From contig JARGFV010000001.1 in the NCBI GenBank assembly GCA_029210545.1, forward strand, positions 3,500-67,499: a stretch of DNA of 64,000 bases, given 5' to 3'. This stretch comes from a bacterium (lineage in GTDB: Bacteria > BMS3Abin14). The notes beneath the pieces were generated by a model, which saw nothing but the letters and a program-made list of their open reading frames with translations, searched no databases and was not told where the DNA came from. Both the position numbers and the translations under genes were made by a program. Of the stretch, positions 4,804 to 46,346 are shown piece after piece (within the stretch, counting starts at the first letter, position 1; every line of letters begins with the position of its first letter).

Positions 4804-6057
4804 ATGTCATTTTCAACGTATTTCAGAATGCTTCCCCTTTTATCCATATCCCTGCTGCTGGCTGCCGGGTGCGCCACTCCCATTCCCCCGAGCTACAGCA
4901 TGTCCGGGCAGCAACCTGACCTTCCGGGTCCCATCGCCGCCCTCGCCGCCGGAGACGGCCAGGTGGCGGCCGCCAACCCCGACGGCGTCTTCCTCAAGGC
5001 GGAGGGCAAAGGGTGGGAGCGCCTGGAGATCCCCGGCCTGAAGGATCCAGGCAAGGTGACGTGTCTCGCTTTTCAGGAAAACAGTCTCTTCGTGGGGACC
5101 GACGGGGAGGGGCTGCACATCCTTTCAGACGGTCAGTGGGAGGTGGTCAGCCGCAAATACTCCGGACTCCCCGGTGACGGTGTGCTCTCCCTGGCCGTTG
5201 ACGGCAAGGACGACGACTTTCCCGGGACCTCCCTGTGGGTGGGCACCCGGGACGGGTTTGCGGTCCTGAGGGAGGGCACGTGGATCATGTACAGTCCGGA
5301 GGAAAAATGGCTGGATTCGCTGTCCGGGGAAAACATGGCAGAGGATGAGGCGGAGGTCTATCTGGGCCTGGGTTACGACCTTGTCCGTGGGTCCAGGATG
5401 GCGGACCTTTTCACCCCCCCCGTCACCGCTGTCGCCGTGGGGCCCGACCGGGTGGTCTTCGCCAACAACAAATCCCGCCTGGCCGTGGTGGGCGGCGGTT
5501 CGGTGGCTGTTGTGCACTTCTACGATGACCGGGCAGTCCGGTCCATCGTTGTCGACGAGAATGTTATCTGGGCCGGCACCGACAGAGGGCTGTTATGGGG
5601 AGGGGTCTCCGGGAAAGCCGCCGGCAGGCCCTGGCCCACCAACTATCCACAGGCCCAGTGGGGCGGGAGCCTTTCGGGGACAAGGGACACGCGGCCCTTC
5701 GAATACCGCTGGTTCCAGGTGGGGTACAGCACCGCAAACGTCAGCGACCTGGTCCGGGACGGAACTGCCCTTTGGGTGGCCCACACCGGCGGGAGCGGGC
5801 CTGGTCTTGACACCGTTCCGGCGGGCGGTACCAGGAGAGGGGCCGACCTCACCGATCCCATTATCGATCTGAGGCGCTACCTCAATATCGGGGAGTACAT
5901 CGTGCGCAGGGAAAAGCCTGTTTTCGAGAGTTACGGGATGGACGACGGACTTAAGGGAGACACTCTGGCCGTTGCGCCGGTCCCTGAAAGGCGGGAAGTC
6001 TGGGTGGGAACAGAGCGGGGCCTTTACCGTTTTCAACGCCCCGGTCAGCGGCCGTAA
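4804..6057 (+). CDS. Lipoprotein with two-component-regulator-propeller (Reg_prop-like) beta-propeller repeats
   Basis: Signal peptide with lipobox LLAAGC. Repeated motifs LFVGTDGEGLHIL, LWVGTRDGFAVL, IWAGTDRGLLWG and VWVGTERGLYRF. RBS GGAGGG upstream. Confidence 0.6.
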   Translation: MSFSTYFRMLPLLSISLLLAAGCATPIPPSYSMSGQQPDLPGPIAALAAGDGQVAAANPDGVFLKAEGKGWERLEIPGLKDPGKVTCLAFQENSLFVGTDGEGLHILSDGQWEVVSRKYSGLPGDGVLSLAVDGKDDDFPGTSLWVGTRDGFAVLREGTWIMYSPEEKWLDSLSGENMAEDEAEVYLGLGYDLVRGSRMADLFTPPVTAVAVGPDRVVFANNKSRLAVVGGGSVAVVHFYDDRAVRSIVVDENVIWAGTDRGLLWGGVSGKAAGRPWPTNYPQAQWGGSLSGTRDTRPFEYRWFQVGYSTANVSDLVRDGTALWVAHTGGSGPGLDTVPAGGTRRGADLTDPIIDLRRYLNIGEYIVRREKPVFESYGMDDGLKGDTLAVAPVPERREVWVGTERGLYRFQRPGQRP

Positions 6058-6167: not shown

Positions 6168-6764
6168 ATGAAAGGCCCGGAAGTGCTCGAAAAAGTTCTC
6201 GCGGGGAACCGGCGGTTCGTGACGGGGAAAAACAGAGCCCTGGGCGACCCGGTGAACCTCGGGGAAATGGTCCAGACTCAAAGCCCCATAGCGGCGGTCC
6301 TCAGCTGTTCGGATGCCCGTGTCCCCCCCCATCACGTGCTCGACAAGAAGATCGGAGAGATCTTCGTGGTGAGGGTTGCCGGCAAGGTGCCGGGTCCAAG
6401 CGTCATCGGCAGCCTTGAATATGCTGTTGCCCAGCTGAAGGTGCCTCTCCTTCTCGTGCTCGGGCACGAGGGGTGCGGTGCCGTCAAGGCGGCCATGGAG
6501 GGCGGCGCCGAGGGCGTCCTGGGCGAACTCGTAAAGGAGATCGAACTGGCGGTAAGGTCTGTCCTCGAGGAATCGGAAAATCACGAGGATGCCTTTTCCG
6601 AGGCAGTCAAGGCCAACACCCGGCAAACCATGAGAAAACTGATGGAACGGTCACCGGTTATCTCCGATGCGGTCCGCAACGGGGATCTCATCCTGGCGGG
6701 GGCGATCTATTCCCTCGAGACGGGGGAAGTCACTGTCCTGCCTGAGAAAGGTCGGGTGCTGTGA
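6168..6764 (+). CDS. Beta-class carbonic anhydrase
   Basis: Signature motifs CSDAR (Cys-x-Asp-x-Arg) and HEGCGAV (His-x-x-Cys-Gly) at canonical spacing. Confidence 0.85.
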   Translation: MKGPEVLEKVLAGNRRFVTGKNRALGDPVNLGEMVQTQSPIAAVLSCSDARVPPHHVLDKKIGEIFVVRVAGKVPGPSVIGSLEYAVAQLKVPLLLVLGHEGCGAVKAAMEGGAEGVLGELVKEIELAVRSVLEESENHEDAFSEAVKANTRQTMRKLMERSPVISDAVRNGDLILAGAIYSLETGEVTVLPEKGRVL

Positions 6765-6991
6765 GCCGTCTGAAGAGAGGGTCCCTGCAGTTCCTGCAGA
6801 ACCTTGCGGCGTCCGTCTTTATCGGTATCGCCGTATATGGTGCCATCATCTACTGGGGCGGGGAGACGAACCAGAAGGTGCCAATGTGGGAATCGCTCTC
6901 TTTAGGAGCGCTGGCCGTGATCTGCGTCTGGGTCCTCGTTTACATCGGCGGGGTTCAGGACCGGATGGCTGCCCGTAAAGACAAAGAGTAA
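6761..6991 (+). CDS. Small two-TM membrane protein
   Basis: ATGA overlap with the carbonic anhydrase stop. Two hydrophobic helices. Confidence 0.4.
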   Translation: MSRLKRGSLQFLQNLAASVFIGIAVYGAIIYWGGETNQKVPMWESLSLGALAVICVWVLVYIGGVQDRMAARKDKE

Positions 6992-7000: not shown

Positions 7001-7510
7001 GTGAGTGATCTGAAGAAGCTTTTTCGCAAGGAGCACCCCTTCATCACAGAACCGGGCAGCTGGATCCTGGCTGGCCACAGCATGTCGGGAGATCCGCTGG
7101 ATCGCGTGCCCGTACAGGGGCGTATCCAGATCACCCACGAGGAGGGGAAGATCGTCAATCTTGGCGAGATGGGTTTCGTGTCCCGGTCGAACCCCGTGAA
7201 GTTCCAGACGTCCTATGAGCTGACCCCTGCTGAGGACGAGCTGGCCCTGGATTTTTTCCAGGCCAACGACGCGGTCGGGGACCTGAAGGGCCGTTTGGTG
7301 GCATTCGACGACAGGCTTGTCAGCAGTTACACTTCCGGGGATGGAAGCCTGACCGGATTCGAGGTTTTTTTCAGGACCGGTGACAATCGGTACGCGGTCA
7401 CCGGGACCCTGTTGAGTGGAGGTAAGATCATCAGCCTGTGGAAACTGGACATGGTCCGGCCCGCGGCTGAGGAGGCTCGGAAGGATAGCGAGCAGACCGG
7501 CGGGGAATGA
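7001..7510 (+). CDS. Hypothetical protein (169 aa)
   Basis: Same strand as its neighbours in a co-directional run. Chosen over the overlapping 265-aa minus-strand ORF. Confidence 0.35.
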   Translation: MSDLKKLFRKEHPFITEPGSWILAGHSMSGDPLDRVPVQGRIQITHEEGKIVNLGEMGFVSRSNPVKFQTSYELTPAEDELALDFFQANDAVGDLKGRLVAFDDRLVSSYTSGDGSLTGFEVFFRTGDNRYAVTGTLLSGGKIISLWKLDMVRPAAEEARKDSEQTGGE

Positions 7511-7571
7511 GATGGAGGCCCTGGAGGTTCTCTCCCTGCCGGCGGGAAGAATAAACACGGAGGATCTGAGC

Positions 7572-8945
7572 ATGATCGGTAAACGGATAGCAGTCTGGGT
7601 GCTGGCAGGAGCGGTCCTGGTCACCCTGGGGATGCCGGGGATAGTCAAAGCCGACCCCGTGGCGGAGGCCCAGCAGCTCCAGGAGGGCGGCGATATCACC
7701 GGCGCCTACGAACTCCTCAAAAAGGCCAGCGCCGACCTGAGTGACCAACTTAAAAAGAACAAGGCTGAGTTGAAAACACAGGTTTCAGCCCTGTCGGGTG
7801 TCAAGAGCCAGGAAAAGATGGACGAGATCAGGAAAAAGAACGATGTTCTTCTGGCCGAGCGCAAAGAGCTCAAAGCTCAGCAGGACAAGGTGGACGGGGC
7901 CATGAGCCAGATGACCTCCATCCTCGATTACGCGCCCTACCGGGAAAAGGATACCGCGGAAGCTTACGCCCAGTTCATCGAGAAGTTTCCGGAGAGTCCC
8001 AACGTTGAAGAGGCTGCAACAAGGATGTATGAACTCCAGTTCACACCCTACGAGGAGGCAGCCACCACGGAAGGTTACGAGGAGTTCATCTCAAGGTATC
8101 CTGATAACCCCAACGTTCCCAAGGCCCAGGAGCTTCTGGGGGCGGCCGTCTTCAACCAGTTCAAGGACCAGGGTACGGCCGAGGCCATGCAGGCGTTCAT
8201 CAACGAATACCCCGGCAGTCCCCACGTGGCGGAGGCAGAGGTCCTGATGGTCCAGCTGCAGTATTCTCCCTACAAGGAGCTGGATACCGCTGAAGGGTAC
8301 GCCGAGTTCATTGCGGCCTATCCGGAAAACCCCAGCGTTGCCGAGGCTCAGGCGAGGATGGAGGAACTCCAGTTCCTTCCCTACAAGGAGCAGGACAGCA
8401 TCGACGGTTACACTGAATTCCTGGCTCTTTATCCGGACAACCCCGCCGCGGAGGAGGCTGCAACGAAGCTTGGCGACCTGCAGTACGCTCCCTACAAGGA
8501 GCAGAACACGGCTTCAGGTTACGCGGAATTCCTGGCCCGGTATCCGGAAAGCTCCTTTTCAGGGGAAGCGGCCGAGAGGATGAACTATCTCCAGTTCGTG
8601 GTCTACCAGGAGATGAACACTATCGACGGGTACGAAGAGTTCATCACCAGCTATCCTGAGAACAGCCACGTCGAGGAAGCCAGTTACCTTATCGAGGATC
8701 TCGAGTACGCTCCCTACCAGGAGGCCGGCACCATCGAGTCTCTCGAGGAGTTCATCGAGATGTTCCCCACGAACCGCCACGTCCAGGATGCCCGGACCGC
8801 CATAGAAGAAAAAGAAGCAGCCTCCCTTTCAGCTGAAGGTGCGGAGGACCAGCCCGCCGGGGAAGGTGAAGGGTCAGCTCCCGCCCAAGAGGCTCCGGCC
8901 GGGGGGGGAGAACCCCCGGCTGAAGAGGCGCCACCTGAAAGTTGA
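7572..8945 (+). CDS. Secreted protein with an N-terminal coiled coil, about nine tandem ~38-aa repeats (Y-x-E-x-x-T-x-x-G-Y-x-E-F-I-x-x-Y-P-x-x-P-x-V-x-E-A...LQ[FY]xP), and an acidic Pro/Ala/Glu tail
   Basis: ATG at 7572 preceded by GGAGGA. Signal peptide MIGKRIAVWVLAGAVLVTLGMPGIVKA. Repeat units read directly in the translation. Confidence 0.6.
   Translation: MIGKRIAVWVLAGAVLVTLGMPGIVKADPVAEAQQLQEGGDITGAYELLKKASADLSDQLKKNKAELKTQVSALSGVKSQEKMDEIRKKNDVLLAERKELKAQQDKVDGAMSQMTSILDYAPYREKDTAEAYAQFIEKFPESPNVEEAATRMYELQFTPYEEAATTEGYEEFISRYPDNPNVPKAQELLGAAVFNQFKDQGTAEAMQAFINEYPGSPHVAEAEVLMVQLQYSPYKELDTAEGYAEFIAAYPENPSVAEAQARMEELQFLPYKEQDSIDGYTEFLALYPDNPAAEEAATKLGDLQYAPYKEQNTASGYAEFLARYPESSFSGEAAERMNYLQFVVYQEMNTIDGYEEFITSYPENSHVEEASYLIEDLEYAPYQEAGTIESLEEFIEMFPTNRHVQDARTAIEEKEAASLSAEGAEDQPAGEGEGSAPAQEAPAGGGEPPAEEAPPES
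7928..8810 (+). repeat. Intragenic tandem repeat (~114-120 bp units) encoding the ~38-aa protein repeats
   Basis: Recurrent YxPYxExxT..GYxEF..YP..P.V.EA...LQ motif through the ORF. Confidence 0.6.
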
Positions 8946-8963
8946 TGACTTTTCGCGAGGTCA

Positions 8964-9527
8964 TCAATCTTGAATTGCCGAGTTGAGTCTTTCCAGGAAC
9001 TCGGCGATTATCCTCGCTGTCAAACCCCAGACCGGTTGATCATCCACCGGGTAGACAGGCGGAGGCAGGTTGAAGGGGTTGTGTCCGGGCATGACCTCCC
9101 TCTGCAGGTGGCCGATCGTCGTGATGTGGGTTCCCTGGACCTCCTTTGGGTCGGGAACAAGGGTGCAGGGCCAGGGAATGATCCCGACATAGGGTTTGAC
9201 CACAAGCCCCGAAACGACGGTGGGCCTCAGGCTCAGTTCACCGATGATCCTGACCTCTCCGGGATCGAAGCCAAGTTCCTCCTCACTCTCCCGGAGTGCT
9301 GTCCGAAGCAGGTCCCCCCCATCTCCCGGGTTTGTCATTCCTCCCGGAAAACCCATCTGCCCGCTGTGCGGACCCCCGTCGCTTGATCTGTGGATCAGCA
9401 GCACTCCCGTGTCGCCGCGTCTTTCGAAAAGGGGAACCAGCACCGCTGAATTGGCCGCCAGACCGATGGGAAGGGGCTTGTCGAGGAAAGGGTCCGTACG
9501 GAGGGCCTTTTTGATAGCGTCAAGCAT
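8964..9527 (-). CDS. NUDIX hydrolase, CoA pyrophosphatase-like (NudL/Nudt7 family)
   Basis: Nudix box GGMTNPGDGGDLLRTALRESEEELG, with a NudL-like N-terminal region upstream. Confidence 0.75.
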   Translation of the reverse strand: MLDAIKKALRTDPFLDKPLPIGLAANSAVLVPLFERRGDTGVLLIHRSSDGGPHSGQMGFPGGMTNPGDGGDLLRTALRESEEELGFDPGEVRIIGELSLRPTVVSGLVVKPYVGIIPWPCTLVPDPKEVQGTHITTIGHLQREVMPGHNPFNLPPPVYPVDDQPVWGLTARIIAEFLERLNSAIQD

Positions 9528-12256: not shown

Positions 12257-13925
12257 TTGATGGACCCGCAATTAGTCACGCTGCGGTTTTTTCTGGTAGT
12301 TGGTTACCAATGTACGATTGACGTATCATTTTTCTGAAATCGTCCATAGTTGACGACAACAGCTCTTTGACAGCATCAATAAGTCCCAAAACAAGCTGAG
12401 AATGGGGTAAATAAGGCCCGTTGTCTTGGATTTTCCTGTTTCTGAACGTAGCGGCGCGCAGGATGTTGACACCTGTGGCCTTCAGGAAAACCGAGCAGGT
12501 CTCCTTGTCGAAGGCGGCGCTGTGGCGCTCCTTCTTGTGTTTGGTTCTCAACGGCGCATGGCCTTGAGGACAGGAGGTGACCTTCCCTCTCTTGGCCAGG
12601 GTGAAATCGGTGAGGCTTACACTCTTGTCCTTGCCGGGCTCCGGCCCCTTGACGGGCGAGACGACCTCGACGCTCATCTCGCTCGCTGCCTTCTCGACGT
12701 TCTCGTCGCCCCCATAGAGGGTGTCGGCCAGAACCTCCTCGGGACCCAGGTCCCGGTTCTTCGTATCCTCGATGAAGGGGATCAGGGCCTTGGCGTCACT
12801 CTTGTTGGCGGGTTCGACCGATATGTGGGTTATCAGGGAAGGCTGGCTCTTCTCCTCGCTGTTCTCGTAGGTCTCGGCGACCTGTACCTGGTAGCCCTTG
12901 CCCTTGTGCCCACTGTAGCCGGCGTCAGGGTCGGAAGGGCTTTGCAGGGAGTCGGAGGGAACGTCACGGTTGGGTTTGACCGAGGCCTTCCTCTTACCGG
13001 TCTCCCCGTCATCCTCGACAATGCACTGTTCCTTGAGAAGCCTCACCAGAAGCTGGTAGCTGGTCATGGAGGATATGCCGGGAAGTTTGCGGAACCGATC
13101 CACCAGGTAAAACAGGTCATTGGCCAGAGTCTCAAGGGTCCTGGATGACTCGGACGGCTTGACCATGGAAAAAGCCGACTCGCCCTTTTTGGACATGTAA
13201 CGGTCGGTCAGTTCCTTGTCCAGAACATCAAACAGACCCTTGTGGTGACGCTTCAGGTTGCGCAGGAACTTCTTGATAGTGGCGACAAACAGGCCGACGC
13301 GGCCCAGATGACGCATGTTCGACTGTATGTGTACCGAGTCGATGCGCTGCTTGCTGGTGTCGACATTGAACACCACGGCAAGCTTGGCGGTCACGGACTC
13401 GAACAGGGGAAGGTAGAGGTTGTGTTCGGTAAGGATCTTCCGTATGCTCCACAGTGTTTTGGGACTGACATAGGCCTCCTCATCCGACTCACCGGTGATA
13501 TTCAAGGCGTAATGCCACTTTTTGTTGAAAGTAAACTGGTCAACCGCATCGTCATCGGTCAGATCGTGCATCTGCTGGAGGATCATCAGGCCCAGCATGG
13601 CGTATAGCTCCTTGGTGGGACGACCTTGAAGCTCGCTGTAGTGTAGGAGGAGCTTTTGAACCGGCAGTTCAGGAAGGACCTCCTCCCTGAACAGATGAGC
13701 CCAGGAGCTCTCCAGAAGCTTGCGGCGCCTGGGGCCTAAATGCTCGAAAGGATCGAACATGTCGAGGGTTTTGTAGTCTTTGGTATGGAACATGGCAACT
13801 CCTCGCAACTCATTGATTTCGTTGGCATATTCCACCATAAACCACGCCCCGTTAAAAGGAAAAACAACCTTTTATCCATGGTTTTCAAATAGTTGGAAGA
13901 ATGATACTTTTTGCGATGCCGTCAA
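12257..13925 (-). mobile_element. Insertion sequence, boundaries approximate, carrying one transposase gene
   Basis: Single 520-aa transposase ORF flanked by noncoding DNA. Ends were not resolved, and no clean inverted repeats were identified by eye. Confidence 0.4.
12276..13838 (-). CDS. IS transposase (IS5/IS1182-like; DDE family with an N-terminal DUF772-like region)
   Basis: Length and layout match this family. The C-terminal region has a Cys-rich motif (SCPQGH...C). Confidence 0.6.
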   Translation of the reverse strand: MVEYANEINELRGVAMFHTKDYKTLDMFDPFEHLGPRRRKLLESSWAHLFREEVLPELPVQKLLLHYSELQGRPTKELYAMLGLMILQQMHDLTDDDAVDQFTFNKKWHYALNITGESDEEAYVSPKTLWSIRKILTEHNLYLPLFESVTAKLAVVFNVDTSKQRIDSVHIQSNMRHLGRVGLFVATIKKFLRNLKRHHKGLFDVLDKELTDRYMSKKGESAFSMVKPSESSRTLETLANDLFYLVDRFRKLPGISSMTSYQLLVRLLKEQCIVEDDGETGKRKASVKPNRDVPSDSLQSPSDPDAGYSGHKGKGYQVQVAETYENSEEKSQPSLITHISVEPANKSDAKALIPFIEDTKNRDLGPEEVLADTLYGGDENVEKAASEMSVEVVSPVKGPEPGKDKSVSLTDFTLAKRGKVTSCPQGHAPLRTKHKKERHSAAFDKETCSVFLKATGVNILRAATFRNRKIQDNGPYLPHSQLVLGLIDAVKELLSSTMDDFRKMIRQSYIGNQLPEKTAA

Positions 13926-20240: not shown

Positions 20241-21323
20241 TCACCTCCGCCTTTTATATCCGGCGATGATCCCAAACCCCAGCCACGTGACGACCAGGCT
20301 CGACCCCCCATAACTCAAAAGCGGCATCGGCAAACCCACCACCGGCAAAAGCCCCGCGGCCATGGCCACGTTGATGGCCGCCTGCATGGCGAAAGCAAAG
20401 GTGATGCCCACCACCACCAGGAGGGAAAACCTCGTCCTGGTGAACTCCACAAAACTCAACAGGTAAAGGGAAAGGAAAAGGACCAGCCCGAGCACCAGGA
20501 GGACCCCGAGGAACCCGAACTCCTCGGCAAGGACCGAGATGATGAAATCGGTGTGCTGTTCGGGGATGAACCGGAGCTGGGACTGGGTCCCCTGCTGGAA
20601 CCCCTTTCCGAGAAGCCCGCCTGATCCGATGGCGATCTTCGACTGGACAACGTGATAGCCGGTGCCGAGGGGGTCCCTCTCGGGACTCAGAAAGTTGAGG
20701 ATCCGGTTCCTCTGGTACTCCTTCAGTGCGAAAAAGAGGGAAGGCACTGCTGCCGCTGCCACAAGGGAAAGGGTGAGAATGGTCGACCAGCGAACTCCCA
20801 CGAACAGGATCATGGCGGCGGAAATAAGGACCAGGAACATGGCGGTACCCAGGTCAGGCTGGGCGGCGACAGGGACAGCGTAGCCGGCAACCATCAGCAG
20901 CGGGATGGCGATCCCCTCCAGGCCGTAGGGCGGCTGAGCCTTCTGCCTGTTGAAGTAGCGGGCCAGCGCAAGGATAAGGATGATCTTGGCCATTTCTGAG
21001 GGCTGGAACGTCAGCCCTCCGGCATGGACCCACCTCTGCACCCCTCCCGACCACTTCCCCGCCACCGCGAGTCCGACGAGGACGGCAAACATCATACCGT
21101 AGAGCACATATGCTCCGCGCTGTAGATGCCGGCGGTCGGCGAAGTAGCCGAGAAAAAAAGCAGCCAAACCGATGGCAAGCCAGTATGCCTGACGGCCGCC
21201 GTAATGTTGGAAGGGCCCGCCCCGGGTGGCCGAACGGATGACCATGATGCCGATTCCCGACAGGGCAACGGCACACCCTACCAGGATCGCATCCACCCGC
21301 ATGGGGTTCCACAAACCTCTCAC
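20241..21323 (-). CDS. rodA: SEDS-family peptidoglycan glycosyltransferase RodA
   Basis: FtsW/RodA motifs (GSGGLLGKGF, FIPEQHTDFI). Lies immediately downstream of mrdA. Confidence 0.85.
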   Translation of the reverse strand: MRGLWNPMRVDAILVGCAVALSGIGIMVIRSATRGGPFQHYGGRQAYWLAIGLAAFFLGYFADRRHLQRGAYVLYGMMFAVLVGLAVAGKWSGGVQRWVHAGGLTFQPSEMAKIILILALARYFNRQKAQPPYGLEGIAIPLLMVAGYAVPVAAQPDLGTAMFLVLISAAMILFVGVRWSTILTLSLVAAAAVPSLFFALKEYQRNRILNFLSPERDPLGTGYHVVQSKIAIGSGGLLGKGFQQGTQSQLRFIPEQHTDFIISVLAEEFGFLGVLLVLGLVLFLSLYLLSFVEFTRTRFSLLVVVGITFAFAMQAAINVAMAAGLLPVVGLPMPLLSYGGSSLVVTWLGFGIIAGYKRRR

Positions 21324-23191
21324 CGCGCTCCCCCTGCTTCCACCGCTCCGGAAATGTTTTCAGGATAATACTCGGCGTACCGCTTGAACATCCGCGCCAC
21401 GATGGGCGCGGCAGCCGAAGAACCGTGCCCTCCATGTTCGACCACCACTGCCGCAGCCACCCGGGGCCTGTCCACCGGGGCGAAGGCCGCGAACCACGCG
21501 TGGTCTTTCAGTTCATAGGGGATATTTCCCTCACCCCCGGCCACCGATTCCTGGAGTCTCACGACCTGGGAGGTGCCGGTCTTCCCCGCTACCGGGATGC
21601 CTGAGATGCGGGCGATCCGTCCCGTTCCCCTGTCGTCGGAAACCACCCCCTCGAGAGCTTTCACGATCCGATCCCACACCTCCTGTCCGATCTCCGACTC
21701 TCTCCTGACTGCAGGGTCCCTGCGGTACAGTTCCTGCCCCTTAACATCCTCACACCGGCTCACAATGAACGGGTCCATCTGGACACCCCGCCTGGCCACC
21801 GTGGCGTAAAGGGCCGCCAGCTGAAGAGGCGTCACCAGCACGTAACCCTGGCCGATGGCCGCGGACAGGGTCTCCCCTGGAAACCACACCTCGCCCCTGG
21901 AGTTCAACTTCCAGTCCGGGGAGGGAACGAGGCCCACAGCCTCGCCCGGGATGTCGATCCCCGTTTTCCGCCCCAGTCCGAGGGCCGAAGCCCAGCGTGC
22001 CATGGCATCGATCCCCATCCTCTCCCCGACCTGGTAGAAATAGACATCGCACGACTCCACCACGGCACGCTGCAGGTCCACCTTTCCATGCCCCTGCGGT
22101 TTCCAGTCCCTGTAGACCCTTTTTCCGTAGCTGTACCCGCCGGAACAGAGGAGGCGTTCATCAGGGTCTATAGCGCCTTCCATGAGAGCGGCAATGGCAG
22201 TGACGACCTTGAAGGTGGAACCGGGCGGGTACATCCCCTGCACAGCCCTGCTCTGCAGGGGGTGGCCGGGGTCGAGGATGATCTCGTTCCACCGCTCATC
22301 AGTAAGACGAAGGGAAAATTCATTGGGGTCGAAGGCCGGCGTGCTCACCATGGCCAGGACTTCTCCCGTGGTCGCATCGAGGAAAACGCCGGCCCCTCTC
22401 ATCCCGGAAAGTTCCTGCTCCAGAGCCTTCTGGAGGCGAAGGTCGATAGTCAGGGTCAGGTTCGCGCCAGGGACAGGCTCTGTGGCTCCCAGGATATTGA
22501 GTTCCCTTCCACGGGCGTCTACCTCGACCTGCCGCCCGCCATCGCGCCCCGTGAGAAAACGGTCATAGGCAAGCTCCAGGGCGTACTTTCCTACCGTGTC
22601 CCCCTTGCGAATCCCCTCATAACGGCCCGAGTCCAGCTGAGCCCTCGAGATCTCGCCAACATAACCGAGGAGATGTGCCGCCACCTGACCGTAAGGATAA
22701 TACCTTCGCGGAACCACGACCAGGCGGGATCCCGGGAACCTCTCCTGGTCGGCTTCGAAAAGGGCGACCTCAACATCCTCCAGGTGCTCGAATATCCGGA
22801 CGGCCCGGTAGGGCGCTCCCGAGGAACTGCCCTTGAAAAGAGCGACCGCCTCCTTCGGGTCCCTTCCCAGCAAACGGGCAAGGGAGAGGATCTGACCTTC
22901 CCTGTCCTTGTCCATGTCCTCGGGAATGAGAGCGATCGAGTATTCAGGGCTGCTGTCGGCGAGGATCACACCGTTGCGGTCGGTGATGATCCCCCTGGTG
23001 GCCTTCATCTCGACGAGGCGGATCCGGTTGTTGTCAGCCAGTTTCTGGTAGCGGGAGTGCTGAAGGACCTGCAGATGCCAGAAGTAGAGGAGGATCAGGA
23101 GAAAGACCAGGGTGATGACGCCCATGGTGACGGCCAACCTGCGCTCGATACCCTGCAGCGTCTCACCGGGTCGCTTTGAGAACGAACCCAT
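21320..23191 (-). CDS. mrdA: Penicillin-binding protein 2 (transpeptidase)
   Basis: SxxK STFK and the KTG triad KTGTSQ. N-terminal TM anchor. Lies in the mre operon. Confidence 0.85.
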   Translation of the reverse strand: MGSFSKRPGETLQGIERRLAVTMGVITLVFLLILLYFWHLQVLQHSRYQKLADNNRIRLVEMKATRGIITDRNGVILADSSPEYSIALIPEDMDKDREGQILSLARLLGRDPKEAVALFKGSSSGAPYRAVRIFEHLEDVEVALFEADQERFPGSRLVVVPRRYYPYGQVAAHLLGYVGEISRAQLDSGRYEGIRKGDTVGKYALELAYDRFLTGRDGGRQVEVDARGRELNILGATEPVPGANLTLTIDLRLQKALEQELSGMRGAGVFLDATTGEVLAMVSTPAFDPNEFSLRLTDERWNEIILDPGHPLQSRAVQGMYPPGSTFKVVTAIAALMEGAIDPDERLLCSGGYSYGKRVYRDWKPQGHGKVDLQRAVVESCDVYFYQVGERMGIDAMARWASALGLGRKTGIDIPGEAVGLVPSPDWKLNSRGEVWFPGETLSAAIGQGYVLVTPLQLAALYATVARRGVQMDPFIVSRCEDVKGQELYRRDPAVRRESEIGQEVWDRIVKALEGVVSDDRGTGRIARISGIPVAGKTGTSQVVRLQESVAGGEGNIPYELKDHAWFAAFAPVDRPRVAAAVVVEHGGHGSSAAAPIVARMFKRYAEYYPENISGAVEAGGAR

Positions 23192-23193
23192 GA

Positions 23194-23709
23194 CTAGTCT
23201 CCCAGCCTGATCTCCTCCTCTGGCCGGATCCCGAAGGAGGTTTCAAACCGATCGAGGAGAATATGGATGAACAAGGCTGCGGCAGTGTTGCCCGTAAGGG
23301 CCCAGAGGAACTCGGCAGACAGCAGGGGAGGGTAAGGCTGCGCGAACAGGACCAGGGTGGAGATCTTGACGAGGAGAAAGGCAAGAACCGCTCCCGCGAT
23401 GGAGATCGATCTGTGTGCGGTGCTGCGAACGAAAAATTTTTCCCTCAACAACCCTCCCGTAAACCCGGCCACGACCATGGCCATTCCGTTGAACCCCAGG
23501 ACCCCTCCACTCAGGGCGTCCTGGAGATAACCGAGGATCAGACCCGACACCATCCCGGAACTCTTGCCCCGGGTCAAGGCGATGTGAACCACGATCACGA
23601 GGGGAAGGTCGACACCCTGGGTCACCCACTGCGGGAAGATCATCGGGATCCCGGCAGACTGGAGCAGGAGGGCCAGGGCAAAGAGTAAGGGCAGGTACAG
23701 GAACCTCAT
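23194..23709 (-). CDS. mreD: Rod shape-determining protein MreD
   Basis: Small polytopic membrane protein following mreC. Confidence 0.75.
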   Translation of the reverse strand: MRFLYLPLLFALALLLQSAGIPMIFPQWVTQGVDLPLVIVVHIALTRGKSSGMVSGLILGYLQDALSGGVLGFNGMAMVVAGFTGGLLREKFFVRSTAHRSISIAGAVLAFLLVKISTLVLFAQPYPPLLSAEFLWALTGNTAAALFIHILLDRFETSFGIRPEEEIRLGD

Positions 23710-24560
23710 TCCCCGATCTCCACCGGTTGGGGTCGAATGATGAGGACATCCTCGAGACGTGTCAGAGGCGCTTTGGGCAGCATCTTGGCATACTGGTAGA
23801 GCCCGTAATTCTTCTTCAGGACCTGGGTGATCTTCCCGATCTCGATTCCCCTGGGGTAAACCCCCGCCAGACCGCTGGTGATGACGGTATCCTCCTCCCG
23901 CACATCCTCGGTACGGTCGAGATACTTAAGCTGGCAGGTACCCGAGTTCTCTCCTTCCAGGACAGCCCGGGCTCTTGAACGGCTCGCCAGTACGGGGACC
24001 CTGGAAGAACGGTCGATGATAAGCCTGACAATGGAGCTGTGAGGGGCGACAGCCATGACCCTTCCCACCAGTCCGTCCGGCACGACGACGGGCATGCCCC
24101 TTTCGACCCCCTCTTCGGATCCCCGGTTGACGACGATGGTCCTGGTCCATGGATCGGGAGACTCACCGATGACCCGGGCCGCCATCCCTGTCAAACCGGC
24201 CTCCGACCGGTAGATCGCAAACTCTTCCAGGCGCCCGGCACGGTAAAGTTCCTCCCTCACCTCCTGGATCTCGCTCCGGAGCCGGTTGATCTCCTCCCTG
24301 AGAAGCTCGTTCTCGGTCCTGGTGTCTACGAGGAACAGGTAATCGTTCCAGAATCCGTTGACACCGCCCACAACCGCGCCAAGGGCCGCCTGAAAGGGGG
24401 AGATGACGGTGATAACGCTCCGCCGGAAATAGCTCATACCGGTGGGATCACGAACCTGCCTTGAGATGGCGATCAGGGAAAGGATGACCAGGACCGCCAG
24501 AAGCAGCCCTTCCCTGTGGCGCGTCAGGAAATCGCGCATGGGGCTGCCCGGGGCCGGCAT
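23706..24560 (-). CDS. mreC: Rod shape-determining protein MreC
   Basis: N-terminal TM and coiled coil, followed by MreC beta-domains. Confidence 0.8.
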   Translation of the reverse strand: MPAPGSPMRDFLTRHREGLLLAVLVILSLIAISRQVRDPTGMSYFRRSVITVISPFQAALGAVVGGVNGFWNDYLFLVDTRTENELLREEINRLRSEIQEVREELYRAGRLEEFAIYRSEAGLTGMAARVIGESPDPWTRTIVVNRGSEEGVERGMPVVVPDGLVGRVMAVAPHSSIVRLIIDRSSRVPVLASRSRARAVLEGENSGTCQLKYLDRTEDVREEDTVITSGLAGVYPRGIEIGKITQVLKKNYGLYQYAKMLPKAPLTRLEDVLIIRPQPVEIGE

Positions 24561-24564
24561 GGGA

Positions 24565-25611
<1,047 letters not shown>

Positions 25612-26148: not shown

Positions 26149-28053
26149 ATGCTCGAGTTCATGAGAAAAAACGCCGGATCGTGGGTCATCAAGATCCTGC
26201 TCTTCGGTATCGTGATCGTCTTTGCATTCTGGGGGGTTGGTTCATACTCGAACCGGGACGCCAACACGGTCCTGACAATCGGCGACGTCCGGGTTCCCTA
26301 CAACGAGTATCGAGACATGTACAACACCCTGGTCGAAACCTACCGGGGAATCTACGAGAACCTGGATTCGGCCACCCTGGATTTCCTTGATATCAGGGGA
26401 CAGGCCGTGGAGAAGCTCAAGGAGCGATACCTGCTTCTGGAAGCGGCCCGCCGCCTTGACGTGGACGTTGCGGGTGAGGAGGTAGCGGCCCGGATAGCCA
26501 ACACACCGGCTTTTCAGGAGAATGGGGGGTTCTCCCCGCGGAGGTACCAGCTTTTTCTGGACATTAACCGGATGACCCCCGAGGCCTATGAATCGTCCCT
26601 TGCCAGGGAGATCGCTATTGGCAAGGTCACAACTCTTATCCGCTCCACGGCAGTTATCACTCCCCAGGAGGTGAATGACAACCTCCATCTCCTGACGCGC
26701 AAGGCCAGAACCAGGATCCTCCGGTTCGACCCAAACGATTTTGTTCGCGACCTCCCCGAACCTGTCGAAGAGGAACTGATGGACTTTTTCGAGGTGAACA
26801 TCGAATCGTACCGGATCCCGGAAATGTTCCGGCAGAACATAGCCATCATCGACCCCGCACAGGCCGAACCTGACGCTGCAGTGACCGTGGAGGAGATCGA
26901 GGACTGGTATGAGGACCAGGAAGCGGAGTACACCGAACCGGCCGCCTACAGGATCAGCCACATCCTCTTCGCCCTACCCCGCGATGCCTCAGCCGAGAGC
27001 ATCAGTGCCGTCAGGGTCCGGGCTGAGGAAGTTGTCGGGAGGATCAGGGATGGCAAGATCGATTTTGCCAGCGCGGTCCGGCAATACTCGGATGACGTGG
27101 CATCCTCCGGAAAGGGAGGCAACCTGGGGCTTTTCAAGGAAGGCGAGATGGACCGCTCCATCAGGGACGCCGTCAGCGGCCTTGAGACTGATGAAGTCAC
27201 CGATCCGATCCCGACTTCCAGCGGATTCGAGGTGATCCGGCTCGACAGTTTCCGCGAGAGCAGGCTCATCCCCTTCGATGAGGTCCGCAACGCCATCGAG
27301 AAACAGATTCGGAAGGAAAAGGCTTTCGAGATCTCATACGACCTGGCTGACGATCTCCTGGATGAGGTGCTCGGTTCGGACGAGTCCCTCGATAAACTGG
27401 CCAAAGCCAGGGGACTCATGACCATCACCACGCCCCTTTTCAGCCGGGATTCCGCTCTGGAGACAATGGAATTGCCCGCTGAGCTGCTGAAAGCTGCCTT
27501 TGACACCGAGGTGGATGAGGTCGGAGACATCTACGAGCGGGGAGGCAAACTGTACCTGTTCCAGACCATTGAGAGGAACCCATCCTACCTGCCTGAACTG
27601 GACAAGGTCAGGGATAATGTACTGGGAAGCTTTCTTGTCAGCAAAGCCATGGACCTGGCCCTTGCCAGGGCTCAGGAGTTCCGTGAGGCTCTCGAGGGCG
27701 GCCGTTCTCTTGCCTCCATGGCAAGGGATATGAAAAGGCAGCCCATCGAACCGGAACCGTTCACCATCCTGGACGCCTCCATCGCCGGGGTCGACGATGC
27801 CGAACCTGTCATCCACACCGCCTTCGCCATCGGTCAGCCCGGAGGATCAGCTGTCGCCTCCGGACGTCAGGCCCACTACCTAGTGATCCTTGACGGGTTC
27901 GTGGACGCCGATGAAGCGGAGCTTGCCGAAAAACGGGCCACTGTTGAGGAGTCCCTCAGGTCCCAGCGGGAACTGGACCTTCTCAACGGCTACATCCAGG
28001 CCCTCAAGGATGAGATGGCGGACCAGATCGTGGTAAACGAACAACTGCTTTAA
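26149..28053 (+). CDS. ppiD: Periplasmic chaperone / peptidyl-prolyl isomerase PpiD-like
   Basis: N-terminal anchor MLEFMRKNAGSWVIKILLFGIVIVFAFWG, typical of PpiD. SurA-like and parvulin-like regions follow (GGNLGLF...). Confidence 0.75.
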   Translation: MLEFMRKNAGSWVIKILLFGIVIVFAFWGVGSYSNRDANTVLTIGDVRVPYNEYRDMYNTLVETYRGIYENLDSATLDFLDIRGQAVEKLKERYLLLEAARRLDVDVAGEEVAARIANTPAFQENGGFSPRRYQLFLDINRMTPEAYESSLAREIAIGKVTTLIRSTAVITPQEVNDNLHLLTRKARTRILRFDPNDFVRDLPEPVEEELMDFFEVNIESYRIPEMFRQNIAIIDPAQAEPDAAVTVEEIEDWYEDQEAEYTEPAAYRISHILFALPRDASAESISAVRVRAEEVVGRIRDGKIDFASAVRQYSDDVASSGKGGNLGLFKEGEMDRSIRDAVSGLETDEVTDPIPTSSGFEVIRLDSFRESRLIPFDEVRNAIEKQIRKEKAFEISYDLADDLLDEVLGSDESLDKLAKARGLMTITTPLFSRDSALETMELPAELLKAAFDTEVDEVGDIYERGGKLYLFQTIERNPSYLPELDKVRDNVLGSFLVSKAMDLALARAQEFREALEGGRSLASMARDMKRQPIEPEPFTILDASIAGVDDAEPVIHTAFAIGQPGGSAVASGRQAHYLVILDGFVDADEAELAEKRATVEESLRSQRELDLLNGYIQALKDEMADQIVVNEQLL

Positions 28054-40317: not shown

Positions 40318-43107
40318 TTACCTGTAAATCTCGGTAGTCGATTTCGTAAAAGTCCGGCCGTCGAACTTGTACACTCCTGCCTCGGTCCCGAACCACTTGT
40401 TGTCGGCAAGATCCAGGGCCACCACGTTGACCGTCACTTTGGGCATCCCCTGGGCATCCGAGAAACGGACCCACTTGCTGCCGTCGAACCGGGCCGTTCC
40501 CTGCCCAAGGGTCCCCACCCAGACGTTCCAGCGTCCATCCACAGCCACTGACAGGACATGGTCGGAGGGCAGGCCGTCAGCGGTAGTGAAAATCCGGGTC
40601 TTTTTCCCTTCCTGTCTCAGGAGACCGGCATCCGTCCCGATCCAGAACACGCCGTTGGCGTCCATCGTCATGGAGGTCACGTTGTTGCTGGGCAGCCCCT
40701 GCTGCATTGTCCGCACGGTGAACTTGCTTCGGTCATAAAGAGCCAGTCCCTTGTCCGTACCGAACCAGATGTTGTCGAGAGGGTCGACGTACACCGAATT
40801 GATCACATTGCTTGGAAGACCGTCACTGTAATCGTATGTCACCCAGTTGTTCTTCCCGTCGAACTGGGAAACTCCGCGGTCGGTTCCCAACCAGATGAAA
40901 CCGAGGCGATCAACCGCAAGCGCCTTGACCGTGTTACTTATGAGGCCCTTGGCGGAGGTGTAGTTCTTACGGCTTTTGCTTTCGATATCCACCCTGAAAA
41001 GCCCCTCCGTTCCGCCGACCCACAGGTAGTCACCCTGGATGACACTTGGGTGGATGAAAACGCCGTTGGAATTGTCCCGCCAGATCCCGCTGGAGAGCCG
41101 GTACGCTGCCGTTTTTACCTTCTCCCGATTTCCCGCCTTGTCCACAGCGAAATATTTCACCGTGATATCGTCGTTGAGAGAGAGGGGCTTTGTGTAGGCG
41201 GGTGCCTGGTCTGACGGCTGCGAACCGTCCAGGGTATAGCGAATCCTTGCGCCCTCCTCGGATTTCAACTCCAGGATAATGGGTGGGTTGTATTCCCCGG
41301 GAGCAGGAAATGGCAACGTAAACGGCGCTATCGTGTCGATGAAATATTCAGCGACCTGAGCCGGCTCCTTGTTCCCGGCGCTATCCACCGAATAATAGGA
41401 GAGCTTCTCCGTGCGGTCTACCACAAAAGGTCCCGCATAGGCTGTAAAATCGTTCACCCCGGCCCGGCGGACAAATATGGTGCCCTGCTTCTCCGAAACG
41501 AGGGTGACGCTCACCGGACGGTTGAAGTAACCGGGGTCCGGCTCGATGCGTGTGGAGGGCGGCGTCGTGTCGAAGCTGTACCGCTCGACCTGGATCTCCT
41601 CACGGTTGCCTGAATCGTCGGTCCCGTAGAACTTGAGGACCGTATCCTTTGTGATACGGACGGGACCCCGGTATCTCGGGGAAGCTTCTGTGGGTGAGAT
41701 CCCGTCTGTAGTGTACCGGATCACAGCACCCTCTTCACCGACAAGACTGACTGTGACCTCGCCCGAGAAAGTGCCTCCAGGCGGCTGTGCGGCGGTATCC
41801 GGCGGTGTGCTGTCCAGAACGTATTCCTGGCTCCGGGGCTGGCTCCGGTTACCGACCCTGTCCACTGCGAGATAGGTCAGAACTGTATTTTTCTCGATGG
41901 TTATCGGACCCTGGTAAGGGGACGACCTGTCGGAAGGAGTGGTGCCGTCAAGGGTGTAGAAGATCTCCGCCGGTTCAGACGCCTCTATCTTGACCCTGAT
42001 CCTGCCCGAATAGTCACCCCCCGGGGGACGGGGCTGGACGGTTGGGGGCTGCGTGTCGATGACATATTGGGCCGTCACAACGGGACTTCGGTTCCCGGCG
42101 GCATCCACGGCCATAAAAGAAACCACAGTATCCGCTGCCAGCCTGAGGGGGGACCGGTAAACAGGGGAGGACAGCGTGGCCTCCCGGCCATCCATCTCGT
42201 AATGGATCTGTCCCCTTTCGCTGGAGGTCAGTGTGACCACGGTCGGTTTTCCGAACGCTCCTGCCGGCGGCTTGGCAATCACAGTGGGAGGCTGGCTGTC
42301 AATGACGTAGTTCTCCTCGCGCACATCTTCCCGGTTGCCTGCCTCGTCGATGGCGAAGAACCGCAGGACACCGCTGCGGACGAACTGCAGCGGGCCGGAG
42401 TACCGCGGCGAACCTGTGGACGGCCTGCTGCCGTTGATGGTGAAGTGGATGGTAGTGCCCTCTTCGCCGGACAGGGACACCGTGACGGGAGAATTGAAAA
42501 GCCCACCTGACGGTTCCGCGAGGGTCACGGGCTTTGTGGAATCGAGGGTGATGAGGTACGTTTCCTTGCGGGCCTCTTCCCGGTTGCCCGCTTCGTCCGT
42601 AGCGAAGAAACGCAGGGTCGTGTCCCTTCTCATGGCTACGGGGGAAGTGTAAGTCGATGATCCGGGGCCGGGTTCGGTGCCGTCTGTCGTGTAGGAGATG
42701 ACGGCTCCCTCCTCGGACTTGAGCCGAACGGACACGGGGTGGAAGAACTTCCCTCCTGACGGCAGGGCCGTGGTCACAGGCGGTTCTGTGTCAAGGCGGA
42801 CGGCGTAACTGGCAGACTGGACAGTTGACCTGTTACCGAACCTGTCCTCGGCGAAATAGCCCACCCTTGTGTCCCGCTTGATCCGAACAGGGGAAAGGTA
42901 TGGCATGGGCTGCCCATCATCCAGTGCGATGAAGACCGATGCTCCCGGTTCACTGGACAAGACGACGGATATGACCTCGTGGTACTTTCCCGGAACGGGC
43001 TGGATCTGGACCTGGGGAGGAGTCCGATCGATGGGCCAGAGCCAGGCCAGAACTGCCAGGAGAGCAAACAGAATGGCCAGAGACAGGTAACTTTTGCCTT
43101 TCATCAA
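40318..43107 (-). CDS. Secreted 929-aa protein: about ten chitobiase/beta-hexosaminidase C-terminal-like (CHB_HEX_C-type) modules plus a C-terminal Reg_prop-like beta-propeller
   Basis: Signal peptide. Repeated ~80-aa units (P.GG.Y..P..V.L.SEEGA.I.YT.DG..P...S..Y..P....DT.L.F.A.D.AGN.E). C-terminal WxGT/Y_Y_Y-like repeats. Confidence 0.65.
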   Translation of the reverse strand: MMKGKSYLSLAILFALLAVLAWLWPIDRTPPQVQIQPVPGKYHEVISVVLSSEPGASVFIALDDGQPMPYLSPVRIKRDTRVGYFAEDRFGNRSTVQSASYAVRLDTEPPVTTALPSGGKFFHPVSVRLKSEEGAVISYTTDGTEPGPGSSTYTSPVAMRRDTTLRFFATDEAGNREEARKETYLITLDSTKPVTLAEPSGGLFNSPVTVSLSGEEGTTIHFTINGSRPSTGSPRYSGPLQFVRSGVLRFFAIDEAGNREDVREENYVIDSQPPTVIAKPPAGAFGKPTVVTLTSSERGQIHYEMDGREATLSSPVYRSPLRLAADTVVSFMAVDAAGNRSPVVTAQYVIDTQPPTVQPRPPGGDYSGRIRVKIEASEPAEIFYTLDGTTPSDRSSPYQGPITIEKNTVLTYLAVDRVGNRSQPRSQEYVLDSTPPDTAAQPPGGTFSGEVTVSLVGEEGAVIRYTTDGISPTEASPRYRGPVRITKDTVLKFYGTDDSGNREEIQVERYSFDTTPPSTRIEPDPGYFNRPVSVTLVSEKQGTIFVRRAGVNDFTAYAGPFVVDRTEKLSYYSVDSAGNKEPAQVAEYFIDTIAPFTLPFPAPGEYNPPIILELKSEEGARIRYTLDGSQPSDQAPAYTKPLSLNDDITVKYFAVDKAGNREKVKTAAYRLSSGIWRDNSNGVFIHPSVIQGDYLWVGGTEGLFRVDIESKSRKNYTSAKGLISNTVKALAVDRLGFIWLGTDRGVSQFDGKNNWVTYDYSDGLPSNVINSVYVDPLDNIWFGTDKGLALYDRSKFTVRTMQQGLPSNNVTSMTMDANGVFWIGTDAGLLRQEGKKTRIFTTADGLPSDHVLSVAVDGRWNVWVGTLGQGTARFDGSKWVRFSDAQGMPKVTVNVVALDLADNKWFGTEAGVYKFDGRTFTKSTTEIYR

Positions 43108-44129
43108 GCCTCCCTTTCAGGTGGTCCGTCATAATAGTAACGGCCGTACTTGACGTAACCCGACACGTTTCCCAGTCGGGGATCATCCTGTGTCTTGAGG
43201 AGCGCCAGTTCTCCGCGGATCAGGGGCTGAAGATATTCGAAGAGGGCCTCTCCCCCTCCGCCGGCGAGAAGGACCACATCCAGGTCCCAGTCATCGACCC
43301 AGATCCTCTCCATGTCGCTCACAACGGCCGTCGCCAGCCTGCCGAACACCTCGTTCTTGACCTTGGTCAGGTCGTATTCGGCCCCCCTGATCTTGATACT
43401 TCCCTCCCGGACAGCGTCGTATAGCCGGTAGATCTCAACGTTCACACCGCTCATCTCGTTGAGAGCCTCGGAGATGAACTGGAACCCCTTGGAGATGCCG
43501 GTATCGGTTGTCCGGCTGCCCCTCTCGGAGTGCCTGAGCCCCTTGCATACGGTAAAATCGGTTGTTTTGAACCCGATATCGACGACCCCTATCTTCTGCC
43601 GGGCCATGTCCGGTCTCAGGAGGGTACCGTCCTCACGGAAAAGGTAGTCGACGAGGCTGCCATAAGGCTGGGGGATCACCTTCACGCGGTTGACGGACAG
43701 TGCCATCTCCCGGCTTTCAGAGCCGTTGTGAACCTTCAGTTCATGTTCACCGGAAAGGGCAGCCGTCAGCTTGTCCTTGTACTCCATGTAGTAGCCCACG
43801 GGAAGGCCGGTCACGACGTTAACCGGGACCCTGCTCGGGGCGATCTTGGCCAGCCCGGCCAGAGCGAGGGTCTTGAACTGCTGGGTGACCATCTGTGCCT
43901 GATCGAGGGTGAACTGCCGGACCCGGGACTCCGACTCGGCAAGATCCCCCACGAAAAAAGAGCGGTCCCCCAGGCTCATGTGCAGGCCGGAAACACCTTC
44001 CCCCGAAAAAAAGTTCTCGTCCATGGACCTCGGCTGAGGCTCACCTATTATCGACTTGAACAAGACGGTAGTCTCACCGTCCGTGGCCTTGGTGAAACCG
44101 AAACCGACGTCAATTCCTACCATCAGCAT
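43104..44129 (-). CDS. Actin-fold ATPase of the ParM/StbA-like family
   Basis: Phosphate-1 MVGIDVGFGFTKA, phosphate-2 VVDIGFKTTDF, adenosine motif LLAGGGGEAL. Start at M18 of the ORF. Confidence 0.55.
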   Translation of the reverse strand: MLMVGIDVGFGFTKATDGETTVLFKSIIGEPQPRSMDENFFSGEGVSGLHMSLGDRSFFVGDLAESESRVRQFTLDQAQMVTQQFKTLALAGLAKIAPSRVPVNVVTGLPVGYYMEYKDKLTAALSGEHELKVHNGSESREMALSVNRVKVIPQPYGSLVDYLFREDGTLLRPDMARQKIGVVDIGFKTTDFTVCKGLRHSERGSRTTDTGISKGFQFISEALNEMSGVNVEIYRLYDAVREGSIKIRGAEYDLTKVKNEVFGRLATAVVSDMERIWVDDWDLDVVLLAGGGGEALFEYLQPLIRGELALLKTQDDPRLGNVSGYVKYGRYYYDGPPEREA

Positions 44130-45981: not shown

Positions 45982-46346
45982 GGGTTCAGATCCATGTTGT
46001 TTACGGGATTCAAGACCATTCGCACCCGAGCCAGACCTCATTTCATTGAGCACCAGTGGCCGGAACAGTCAAATTCCGACCTCCTTCGACAGGCCCGGGG
46101 GTCGTTTCCAGCCTCCACCTGATCGGCTGCATTCAAGTGGCTATTAGAGAACCTCGTAAAAGCCTCTTCGAGCCATTTTACGAGCCCATAAAACTTTTCT
46201 GATGTTATATCATTTTCGGGTGGAAGTCTTGAGGTTAAATCCCGCCCGGATGGTTGCCGCACTTGACATGGCACCGGTTCATGATAGTAATATCTCCACC
46301 CGTTTGCCGCAGGGGAAAATGCACATAACGTGGAAAGGCTGCCCTT

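Follow-up and report, generated by a model that had tools for sequence, protein, structure and literature searches.

A predicted exported, acidic protein with eight BamD/CpoB-class tetratricopeptide-like repeats in a narrow uncultivated bacterial lineage

The DNA stretch analyzed herein (64,000 nucleotides; hereafter the window) covers positions 3,500 to 67,499 of contig JARGFV010000001.1 in the bacterial assembly GCA_029210545.1. At 7572..8945 it carries a gene for a protein of 457 amino acids (aa), most of which is a tandem repeat. An earlier sequence-only reading described this repeat as an unrecognized motif of no nameable class. The locus, thus, raises two questions: whether the repeat is new, and what an exported protein with so many copies of it may do. 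The present study revealed that the repeat is of the catalogued BamD/CpoB (YfiO, TPR_6) class of tetratricopeptide-like repeats (TPR) and, hence, is not new. However, the protein is neither a CpoB nor a BamD orthologue. We consider it rather likely that this TPR protein is an accessory, Sec-exported, non-lipidated periplasmic scaffold or adaptor, in which an alpha-solenoid of eight BamD/CpoB-class hairpins binds one or more envelope partners.

The repeat array and its class

The array consists of eight gap-free units, each exactly 37 residues long, which span residues 120-415. The [FY]P dipeptides that anchor the units are located at residues 139, 176, 213, 250, 287, 324, 361, and 398, with no insertion or deletion. 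Mean pairwise unit identity was 0.407 at a period of 37 and 0.05-0.08 at every other period tested (30-44), including 0.074 at 34, the canonical TPR period. The maximum obtained in 2000 shuffles was 0.123 (z=56.7). The tandem repeats reported by the sequence-only reading are real and its consensus motif was essentially correct. However, it counted about nine units of ~38 residues, which was too high because the aromatic residue shared at the unit boundaries was counted twice. The units are as follows.

7929..8039, + strand: repeat unit 1, residues 120-156
8040..8150, + strand: repeat unit 2, residues 157-193; atypical, with a long helix that lacks LQ[FY]xPY; its unit-specific sequence is kept in orthologues
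8151..8261, + strand: repeat unit 3, residues 194-230; the unit that diverges most, conserved by position among orthologues
8262..8372, + strand: repeat unit 4, residues 231-267
8373..8483, + strand: repeat unit 5, residues 268-304
8484..8594, + strand: repeat unit 6, residues 305-341
8595..8705, + strand: repeat unit 7, residues 342-378; 73% identity to unit 7 of the related locus L006
8706..8816, + strand: repeat unit 8, residues 379-415; caps the array; its identity to the last unit of orthologues is 62-68%

At the DNA level, the units are spaced by 111 nt and are only 43-72% identical, which indicates that the array is old. Tandem Repeats Finder missed the repeats in the DNA because the units are too divergent; a separate repeat search recovered the 111-nt register.

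Profile and sequence comparisons placed the repeat in a known class. Pfam YfiO (PF13525, BamD-type TPR) matched three stretches of the protein with 45.5 bits, above its gathering cutoff of 25. In a phmmer search of the PDB, E. coli CpoB (6g5s) ranked first (E 5e-6) with a gap-free alignment of 96 residues, followed by Xanthomonas YbgF (2xev) with a gap-free alignment of 97 residues. Since these alignments contain no gaps, the 37-residue period is common to the CpoB TPR domain. BLASTP against E. coli CpoB aligned the protein in five registers, always within CpoB residues 158-263, and hhalign gave a probability of 95% (E 2.9e-8). The signature F-[IL]-x-x-[YF]-P-x-[SN]...A and the spacing of ~37 were common to the solved members of the class and the TPR protein. 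Three orthologues supplied 24 units for a 37-column profile, and its only PDB matches were CpoB (E 2.5e-9) and BamD chains. These matches cover unit positions ~12-36, with the core gY-x-E-F-[IL]-x-x-Y-P-x-N-P-x-V-x-E-A-x-x-x-[ML]-x-x-L. The first 11 positions (Y-x-P-Y-K-E-x-x-T-x-E) are subclass-specific.

The YfiO score, the unit profile, and the hhalign result together overturn the view that the motif belongs to no nameable class. The hedge that accompanied this view, namely, a TPR-like helical hairpin, was well placed: the units are predicted to be helix-loop-helix and match BamD/CpoB-type TPR. The sequence-only reading also regarded a match to a known Pfam repeat in a conserved context as decisive against novelty. 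The repeat does map to a known Pfam repeat, whereas the conserved context typical of the family, with tol-pal genes, was not found. Similar to the canonical 34-residue TPR (TPR_1/TPR_2), which belongs to one Pfam clan with YfiO and TPR_6, the units are predicted to form helix-turn-helix elements that stack to a solenoid. However, the period is 37 rather than 34, the helices differ in length (10 and 19 residues), and neither TPR_1 nor TPR_2 matched the protein at E<=10.

Predicted structure and charge

AlphaFold2 was run with a 51-row alignment. The predicted local distance difference test score (pLDDT) was 89.7 for the full protein and ~97-98 over the repeats; the array alone gave a pLDDT of 97.1 and a predicted template modelling score of 0.81. 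Each modelled unit comprises a 10-residue helix (xxGYxEF[IL]xx), a six-residue YPxNPx loop, and a 19-residue helix (VxEAxxxMxxLQ[FY]xPYKE), which extends through xPY and is linked to the next unit by a two-residue turn. Most of the conserved residues of the motif look structural, namely, hydrophobic core, helix caps, and loop prolines. Foldseek matches at a probability of about 1.0 were BamD structures (5efr and 3qky), and TPR structures of the LGN type aligned to the model only locally (TM 0.11-0.13). No solved structure matched the predicted array well, and the array model did not superpose on the CpoB TPR domain.

Two further regions flank the array.

7653..7928, + strand: head, residues 28-119; a short helix (29-38), then an antiparallel two-helix hairpin (42-74 and 80-126)
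8817..8942, + strand: C-terminal extension, residues 416-457; a helix to ~425, then an acidic disordered tail rich in A/E/G/P; no hydrophobic sorting signal

The second head helix (80-126) continues directly into unit 1 in the model. The coiled-coil head described by the sequence-only reading was modelled as a helical hairpin; however, heptad periodicity was significant only in the second helix (residues 80-119, p about 0.02). Since the signal is present in one of the two helices, coiled-coil-like helical hairpin is a fair wording. The acidic, low-complexity tail was borne out by a residue tally (80% A/E/G/P over residues 416-457) and by disorder predicted from ~427, with AlphaFold pLDDT of 41-59 from ~420. 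Among orthologues, the tail is 13, 17, 27, 27, and 42 residues long.

The mature protein has a net charge of -55, an isoelectric point (pI) of 4.2, and 20% D+E; the array alone has a net charge of -43. By comparison, D+E makes up 12-15% of the neighboring proteins, and mature E. coli CpoB carries a net charge of +1. This acidity is kept in orthologues (net charge -40 to -59).

Start site and export signal

The open reading frame (ORF) is complete and begins with the following elements.

7559..7564, + strand: Shine-Dalgarno sequence GGAGGA, 7 nt 5' of ATG 7572; ACGGAGGA is kept before the orthologous ATG in L001, L002, L003, and L008
7572..8945, + strand: coding sequence, complete, 457 aa plus stop; start set by comparison with orthologues bearing upstream in-frame stops
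7572..7652, + strand: Sec-type signal peptide, residues 1-27, read from the sequence; MIGKR, a hydrophobic core, and VKA|DP; no lipobox

The arrangement ACGGAGGA-N7-ATG is common to three related loci (L001, L002, and L003), in which in-frame stops are located upstream. Together with the Shine-Dalgarno sequence, this identifies ATG 7572 as the correct start, and the ORF originally reported, on the + strand and ending at 8945, was confirmed. The signal peptide reported with it also stood, as a Sec-type pattern that is kept in orthologues in sequence comparisons. The pLDDT of the signal-peptide region was low (~51 over residues 1-20). No Cys is present in the whole 457-aa protein; therefore, it is not a lipoprotein. 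No sorting signal beyond Sec was recognizable: the C-terminus is hydrophilic, and Pfam detected neither a secretion nor an anchor domain. We infer a periplasmic location.

The orthologous family

Close relatives share the head ADPVAEA-QLQ-AGD-GAY-LL...LKKNK-ELK-Q-SALS-VSS and were found only in metagenomes and metagenome-assembled genomes (MAGs) labelled 'bacterium'. A head-only alignment search of GTDB species representatives found only CP070698.1, and a single-protein query of genome contigs gave no match. The orthologous family is uncharacterized and restricted to a narrow uncultivated lineage. We read nine related genomic contexts, including L001 (CP070698.1), L005 (CP070682.1), and one JGI contig (3300042731).

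Complete eight-unit genes are present in the window, L006, L008, and L009. The units occupy identical positions except for an offset of +10 in L009, where the start is called upstream. The units are positionally orthologous, and units 2, 3, 7, and 8 have unit-specific sequences that are kept between genomes. The fixed number of eight positionally orthologous units and the conserved acidity argue for a specific function rather than a mere spacer.

A 210-aa orthologue with two units is encoded in L002 (5031-5663) and L003 (5443-6075); this form occurs on four Logan contigs. In its first unit, the N-half of unit 1 is joined in register to the C-half of unit 7, so that exactly six units are lost. 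The TPR gene is absent in L010 and the JGI contig, in which the surrounding genes are kept. A relic remains in L010 (5559-5700): the upstream region, a degraded Shine-Dalgarno sequence, and ~70 nt of signal-peptide coding sequence are kept, and a 10-nt deletion took out the ATG. The TPR gene is dispensable in relatives and appears to be a lineage-specific accessory paralogue. It is a concrete case of in-register repeat deletion, gene loss, and assemblies breaking inside a repeat gene.

The orthologous gene contains 100-N scaffold joins in L001 (10714-10813) and L005 (7608-7707), which fall after the start of unit 4 and after unit 6. The genes downstream of these joins are non-syntenic, and the joins may be arbitrary. 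The differing downstream flanks were considered as a sign of a mobile block; this was rejected because the gene is cut by the scaffold joins.

Genomic neighborhood

The genes upstream of the TPR gene are as follows.

4804..6057, + strand: predicted lipoprotein of 417 aa (LLLAAGC lipobox) with Reg_prop propeller-like repeats; kept upstream in every related locus
6168..6764, + strand: beta-class carbonic anhydrase (CA); Pfam Pro_CA 132.6 bits; no signal peptide
6761..6991, + strand: protein of 76 aa that resembles a membrane protein with two transmembrane (TM) segments; its start overlaps the CA stop by 4 nt; kept in relatives
7001..7510, + strand: cytoplasmic protein of 169 aa, no known family; 61 nt upstream of the TPR gene, probably co-transcribed

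The co-directional run with the CA and two small proteins of no assigned family, which the sequence-only reading pointed out, is real. The spacing along the CA, 76-aa, 169-aa, and TPR genes is a 4-nt overlap, a 9-nt gap, and a 61-nt gap, and no terminator-like site was found between them on the + strand. This tight spacing suggests that the TPR gene is co-transcribed with the three upstream genes. Neither small protein matched Pfam, NCBIfam, PADLOC, or PDB sequences. The 169-aa protein has 67 homologues, all from metagenomes or 'bacterium' MAGs; therefore, it represents a lineage-restricted orphan family. In each locus with a TPR gene, the 169-aa gene immediately precedes it.

The order shared with related loci is HK (- strand), the propeller lipoprotein, (Fer4_5), beta-CA, the two-TM protein, the 169-aa protein, the TPR protein, (tRNA_edit), Nudix (- strand), SerA, and a 164-aa protein. 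Where compared (L001-L004), the proteins of relatives are 43-77% identical to those of the window. Since colinearity runs to tRNA_edit, Nudix, SerA, and beyond, the neighborhood reflects shared ancestry in a narrow lineage. The CA neighborhood, the conservation of which had been suggested as a check, does recur in relatives; however, it is general colinearity, the CA itself is sometimes missing, and the association is weak as a functional clue. It was rejected as evidence of function because colinearity reaches housekeeping genes and because either of the two genes, CA or TPR, can be lost without the other. The five-gene block was also considered as a defence system and rejected, as it had no PADLOC match.

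A scan of window ORFs turned up no tol-pal genes, and among the ORFs of the 64-kb window, the TPR gene alone bears the 37-residue repeat. In L001, tolA-like, tolB, and pal genes are located ~8 kb from the TPR gene on the opposite strand, with unrelated genes between, which indicates that the lineage is diderm.

CA is absent in L006 (5469-5740), which keeps the TPR gene. In L001, the CA (8708-9157) was called only as a 34-aa fragment, yet tblastn aligned 194 residues. The CA may be variably retained in this lineage, or the L001 record may have frameshift errors. The intergenic region of ~60 nt located 5' of the TPR gene is well conserved (window 7511-7571, L002 4967-5030, and L008 5517-5574). 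A regulatory RNA in this region was considered and rejected: RNAalifold showed no shared structure and Rfam returned only a distant tRNA.

Proposed role and alternative explanations

In the scaffold or adaptor role that we favor, the signal peptide would direct Sec export to the periplasm without lipidation, and the eight 37-residue hairpins would stack into a rigid alpha-solenoid. By analogy with BamD and CpoB, the differentiated and strongly acidic surface of the array may bind one or more envelope proteins. The helical-hairpin head may serve self-association or docking. Several results weigh against this reading. The Pfam YfiO match spans just part of the array, and TPR_6 was slightly short of its cutoff (23.9 vs 26.3). 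The NCBIfam models for the YbgF TPR domain (TIGR02795, 76.0 bits vs a cutoff of 90.1) and BamD (TIGR03302, 70.2 vs 81.4) were also below their cutoffs. Furthermore, heptad periodicity in the first head helix (42-74) was weak (p about 0.17).

The characterized members of the repeat class, BamD and CpoB, are both periplasmic (PMC7391070, PMC3359395). BamD, a relative of YbgF, belongs to the BAM complex as an essential TPR lipoprotein (PMC3359395). The TPR protein shares the repeat core with BamD/YfiO (PF13525, TIGR03302; 3qky, 5efr, 5waq, and 9n2f) and passes the Pfam YfiO gathering cutoff. However, it has no lipobox or Cys, with a cleavage site of VKA|DP, and its eight units are regular, whereas the five TPRs of BamD are irregular. 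Moreover, L010 and the JGI contig do without the TPR gene, in contrast to the essential BamD (PMC3359395). It is, thus, excluded as a BamD orthologue by lipobox, cutoff, and essentiality.

CpoB comprises a trimeric coiled coil and a three-repeat TPR domain, and binds TolA and PBP1B (PMC7391070). The TPR protein may be a divergent and expanded form that serves as the functional CpoB of this lineage, linking the Tol system to peptidoglycan synthases in division. We regard this as unlikely, even though the three-part plan is the same as that of CpoB/YbgF (E. coli b0742; 6g5s and 2xev): a Sec signal peptide, a coiled-coil-like N-terminal region, and YbgF-type TPR (PMC7391070). The two share the signature x-F-[IL]-x-x-Y-P-x-S/N-x-x-x-x-x-A and an identical 37-residue period. 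CpoB is the best PDB sequence match and TIGR02795 the best NCBIfam match, and Tol genes are present ~8 kb away in L001. An acidic array could also suit a basic partner, such as domain II of TolA. However, besides the shortfall for TIGR02795, the CpoB model PRK10803 (NF008068) scored 52.4 bits against an equivalog cutoff of 383. The head had no match to the trimerization domain TolA_bind_tri (PF16331) at E<=10, the BLASTP and hhalign alignments reach the TPR part only, and the head was modelled as an antiparallel intramolecular hairpin, unlike the trimeric coiled coil of CpoB. The array has eight repeats rather than three, and the protein differs from CpoB in its net charge (-55 vs +1) and its acidic disordered tail. 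E. coli cpoB directly follows pal. In contrast, the TPR gene is not terminal in a tol-pal operon; its neighbors are the CA, 76-aa, and 169-aa genes and a convergent Nudix gene, and the window, as scanned, offers neither tol-pal genes nor a second repeat-bearing ORF. The L001 tol genes are on the opposite strand and set apart by unrelated genes, and two relatives have lost the TPR gene while keeping the surrounding genes. Cutoffs, head, repeat number, and operon, thus, exclude orthology to CpoB. It is similarly doubtful that the hairpin head, eight fixed units, and net charge of -55 mark a new kind of periplasmic organizer that replaces CpoB or acts as a polyanionic rail for cations or partners tied to the CA operon.

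The scaffold reading was also compared with three explanations of lower probability. In one of them, the TPR protein is a partner of the co-transcribed CA, either an acidic periplasmic protein that binds cations (Ca2+/Mg2+/metal) or one that handles carbonate, and the array is a polyanionic surface without a protein groove. The tight spacing free of + strand terminator-like sites, the same gene order in L002/L003, L005, and L009, and the extreme acidity relative to neighbors are in its favor. However, we consider it very unlikely. The CA has no signal peptide and, therefore, is cytoplasmic, whereas the TPR protein is exported; L006 has the TPR gene without CA, and L010 and the JGI contig have CA without the TPR gene. 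The colinearity in all relatives reflects shared ancestry, and no cation-binding motif was detected in a Pfam scan. A surface-exposed or secreted variable protein (adhesin or coat-like), the repeat number of which varies between strains, appears to be just as improbable. Eight units in some genomes versus two in L002/L003, arising by the in-register fusion of units 1 and 7, two MAG assemblies that break inside the gene, its loss in two relatives, and the variable tail length are consistent with this explanation. In contrast, four divergent genomes keep exactly eight positionally orthologous units that are old, which argues against rapid repeat turnover; the export features stop at Sec, with a hydrophilic C-terminus and no secretion or anchor domain in Pfam, and the characterized class members act in the periplasm. 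The least probable explanation, to which we give hardly any credence, is the original view of a new repeat class unrelated to TPR-type repeats. The first 11 unit positions (Yx-P-Y-K-E-x-x-T-x-E) do lie outside the CpoB/BamD matches, and no solved structure fits the predicted array well. However, the YfiO score above gathering, the unit profile that found only CpoB and BamD in the PDB, the hhalign probability of 95%, the period shared with the CpoB TPR domain, and the predicted helix-loop-helix unit all contradict it.

Spread of the 37-residue repeat class

An exhaustive HMMER search covered 1.84 billion cluster representatives and returned 5181 related representatives at E<=1e-3, 1133 of them at E<=1e-10. 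A word-indexed search with the full-length protein gave two weak matches among the matches listed, whereas the repeat-only query and the exhaustive HMMER search recovered relatives. Among 156 collected proteins, 153 besides the TPR protein bear at least one unit, and 37 residues is by far the commonest spacing (448 spacings). Their arrays typically have 6-11 units, usually after a signal or lipoprotein N-terminus, and many continue into other domains. In a scan of the TPR protein and 50 relatives, YfiO matched 38 of 51 and TPR_6 matched 23 of 51. Several relatives carry the JGI label 'outer membrane protein assembly factor BamD (BamD/ComL family)'. Automated pipelines already label relatives as BamD-like, and the catalogued nature of the module removes a false lead.

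Uncharacterized multi-repeat 'BamD-like' proteins, such as P0008 (998 aa, Candidatus Scalindua-type metagenomes), P0013, P0017, and P0046, share the unit T-x-x-x-Y-x-x-F-[IL]-x-x-Y-P-x-[SN]-x-x-x-x-E-A-x-x-x-[ILM]-x-x-L-x-[FY], repeated 6-11 times without gaps at a 37-residue period, behind an N-terminal signal or lipoprotein sequence. However, they lack the conserved hairpin head and are only 21-39% identical to the TPR protein, and many end in other domains or carry membrane anchors. None of the examples read is acidic, and several are lysine-rich. The 37-residue array subclass is very common and seemingly has no experimentally solved multi-unit representative; a structure would aid the annotation of thousands of envelope proteins. 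The residual value of the present locus is modest: the family with a hairpin head and eight acidic units is uncharacterized, and its predicted array geometry has no match among solved structures.

Other observations in the window and related loci

In L002, L006, L008, and L009, a YbaK-like tRNA_edit gene separates the TPR gene from the convergent Nudix gene. L010 has no TPR gene, and its tRNA_edit is flanked by a 185-aa gene and Nudix. The window (8945-8964) lacks tRNA_edit, and only 18 nt separate the TPR and Nudix stop codons there. A DDE transposase (DUF772 + DDE_Tnp_1) is encoded just downstream of the syntenic block (12276-13838, - strand); at the position of this transposase, L006, L010, and the JGI contig have a 161-170-aa gene and, next to it, a gene for a multihaem cytochrome that follows the 161-170-aa gene.

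At 40318-46053 of the window (- strand), an actin-like protein (ALP_N + MreB-like_C, 43104-44180) is located between a 929-aa protein and a 647-aa ORF. The former bears CHB_HEX_C_1, Fn3_assoc, and Reg_prop repeats, and the latter has no Pfam match. A second protein with the repeat types of the 929-aa protein (725 aa) is encoded at 50288-52465 (- strand). A PpiD/SurA-like chaperone is located at 26149-28053. A rod-shape cluster of mreB, mreC, pbp2, and rodA is present at 20241-25602, which indicates that the organism has a conventional elongasome.

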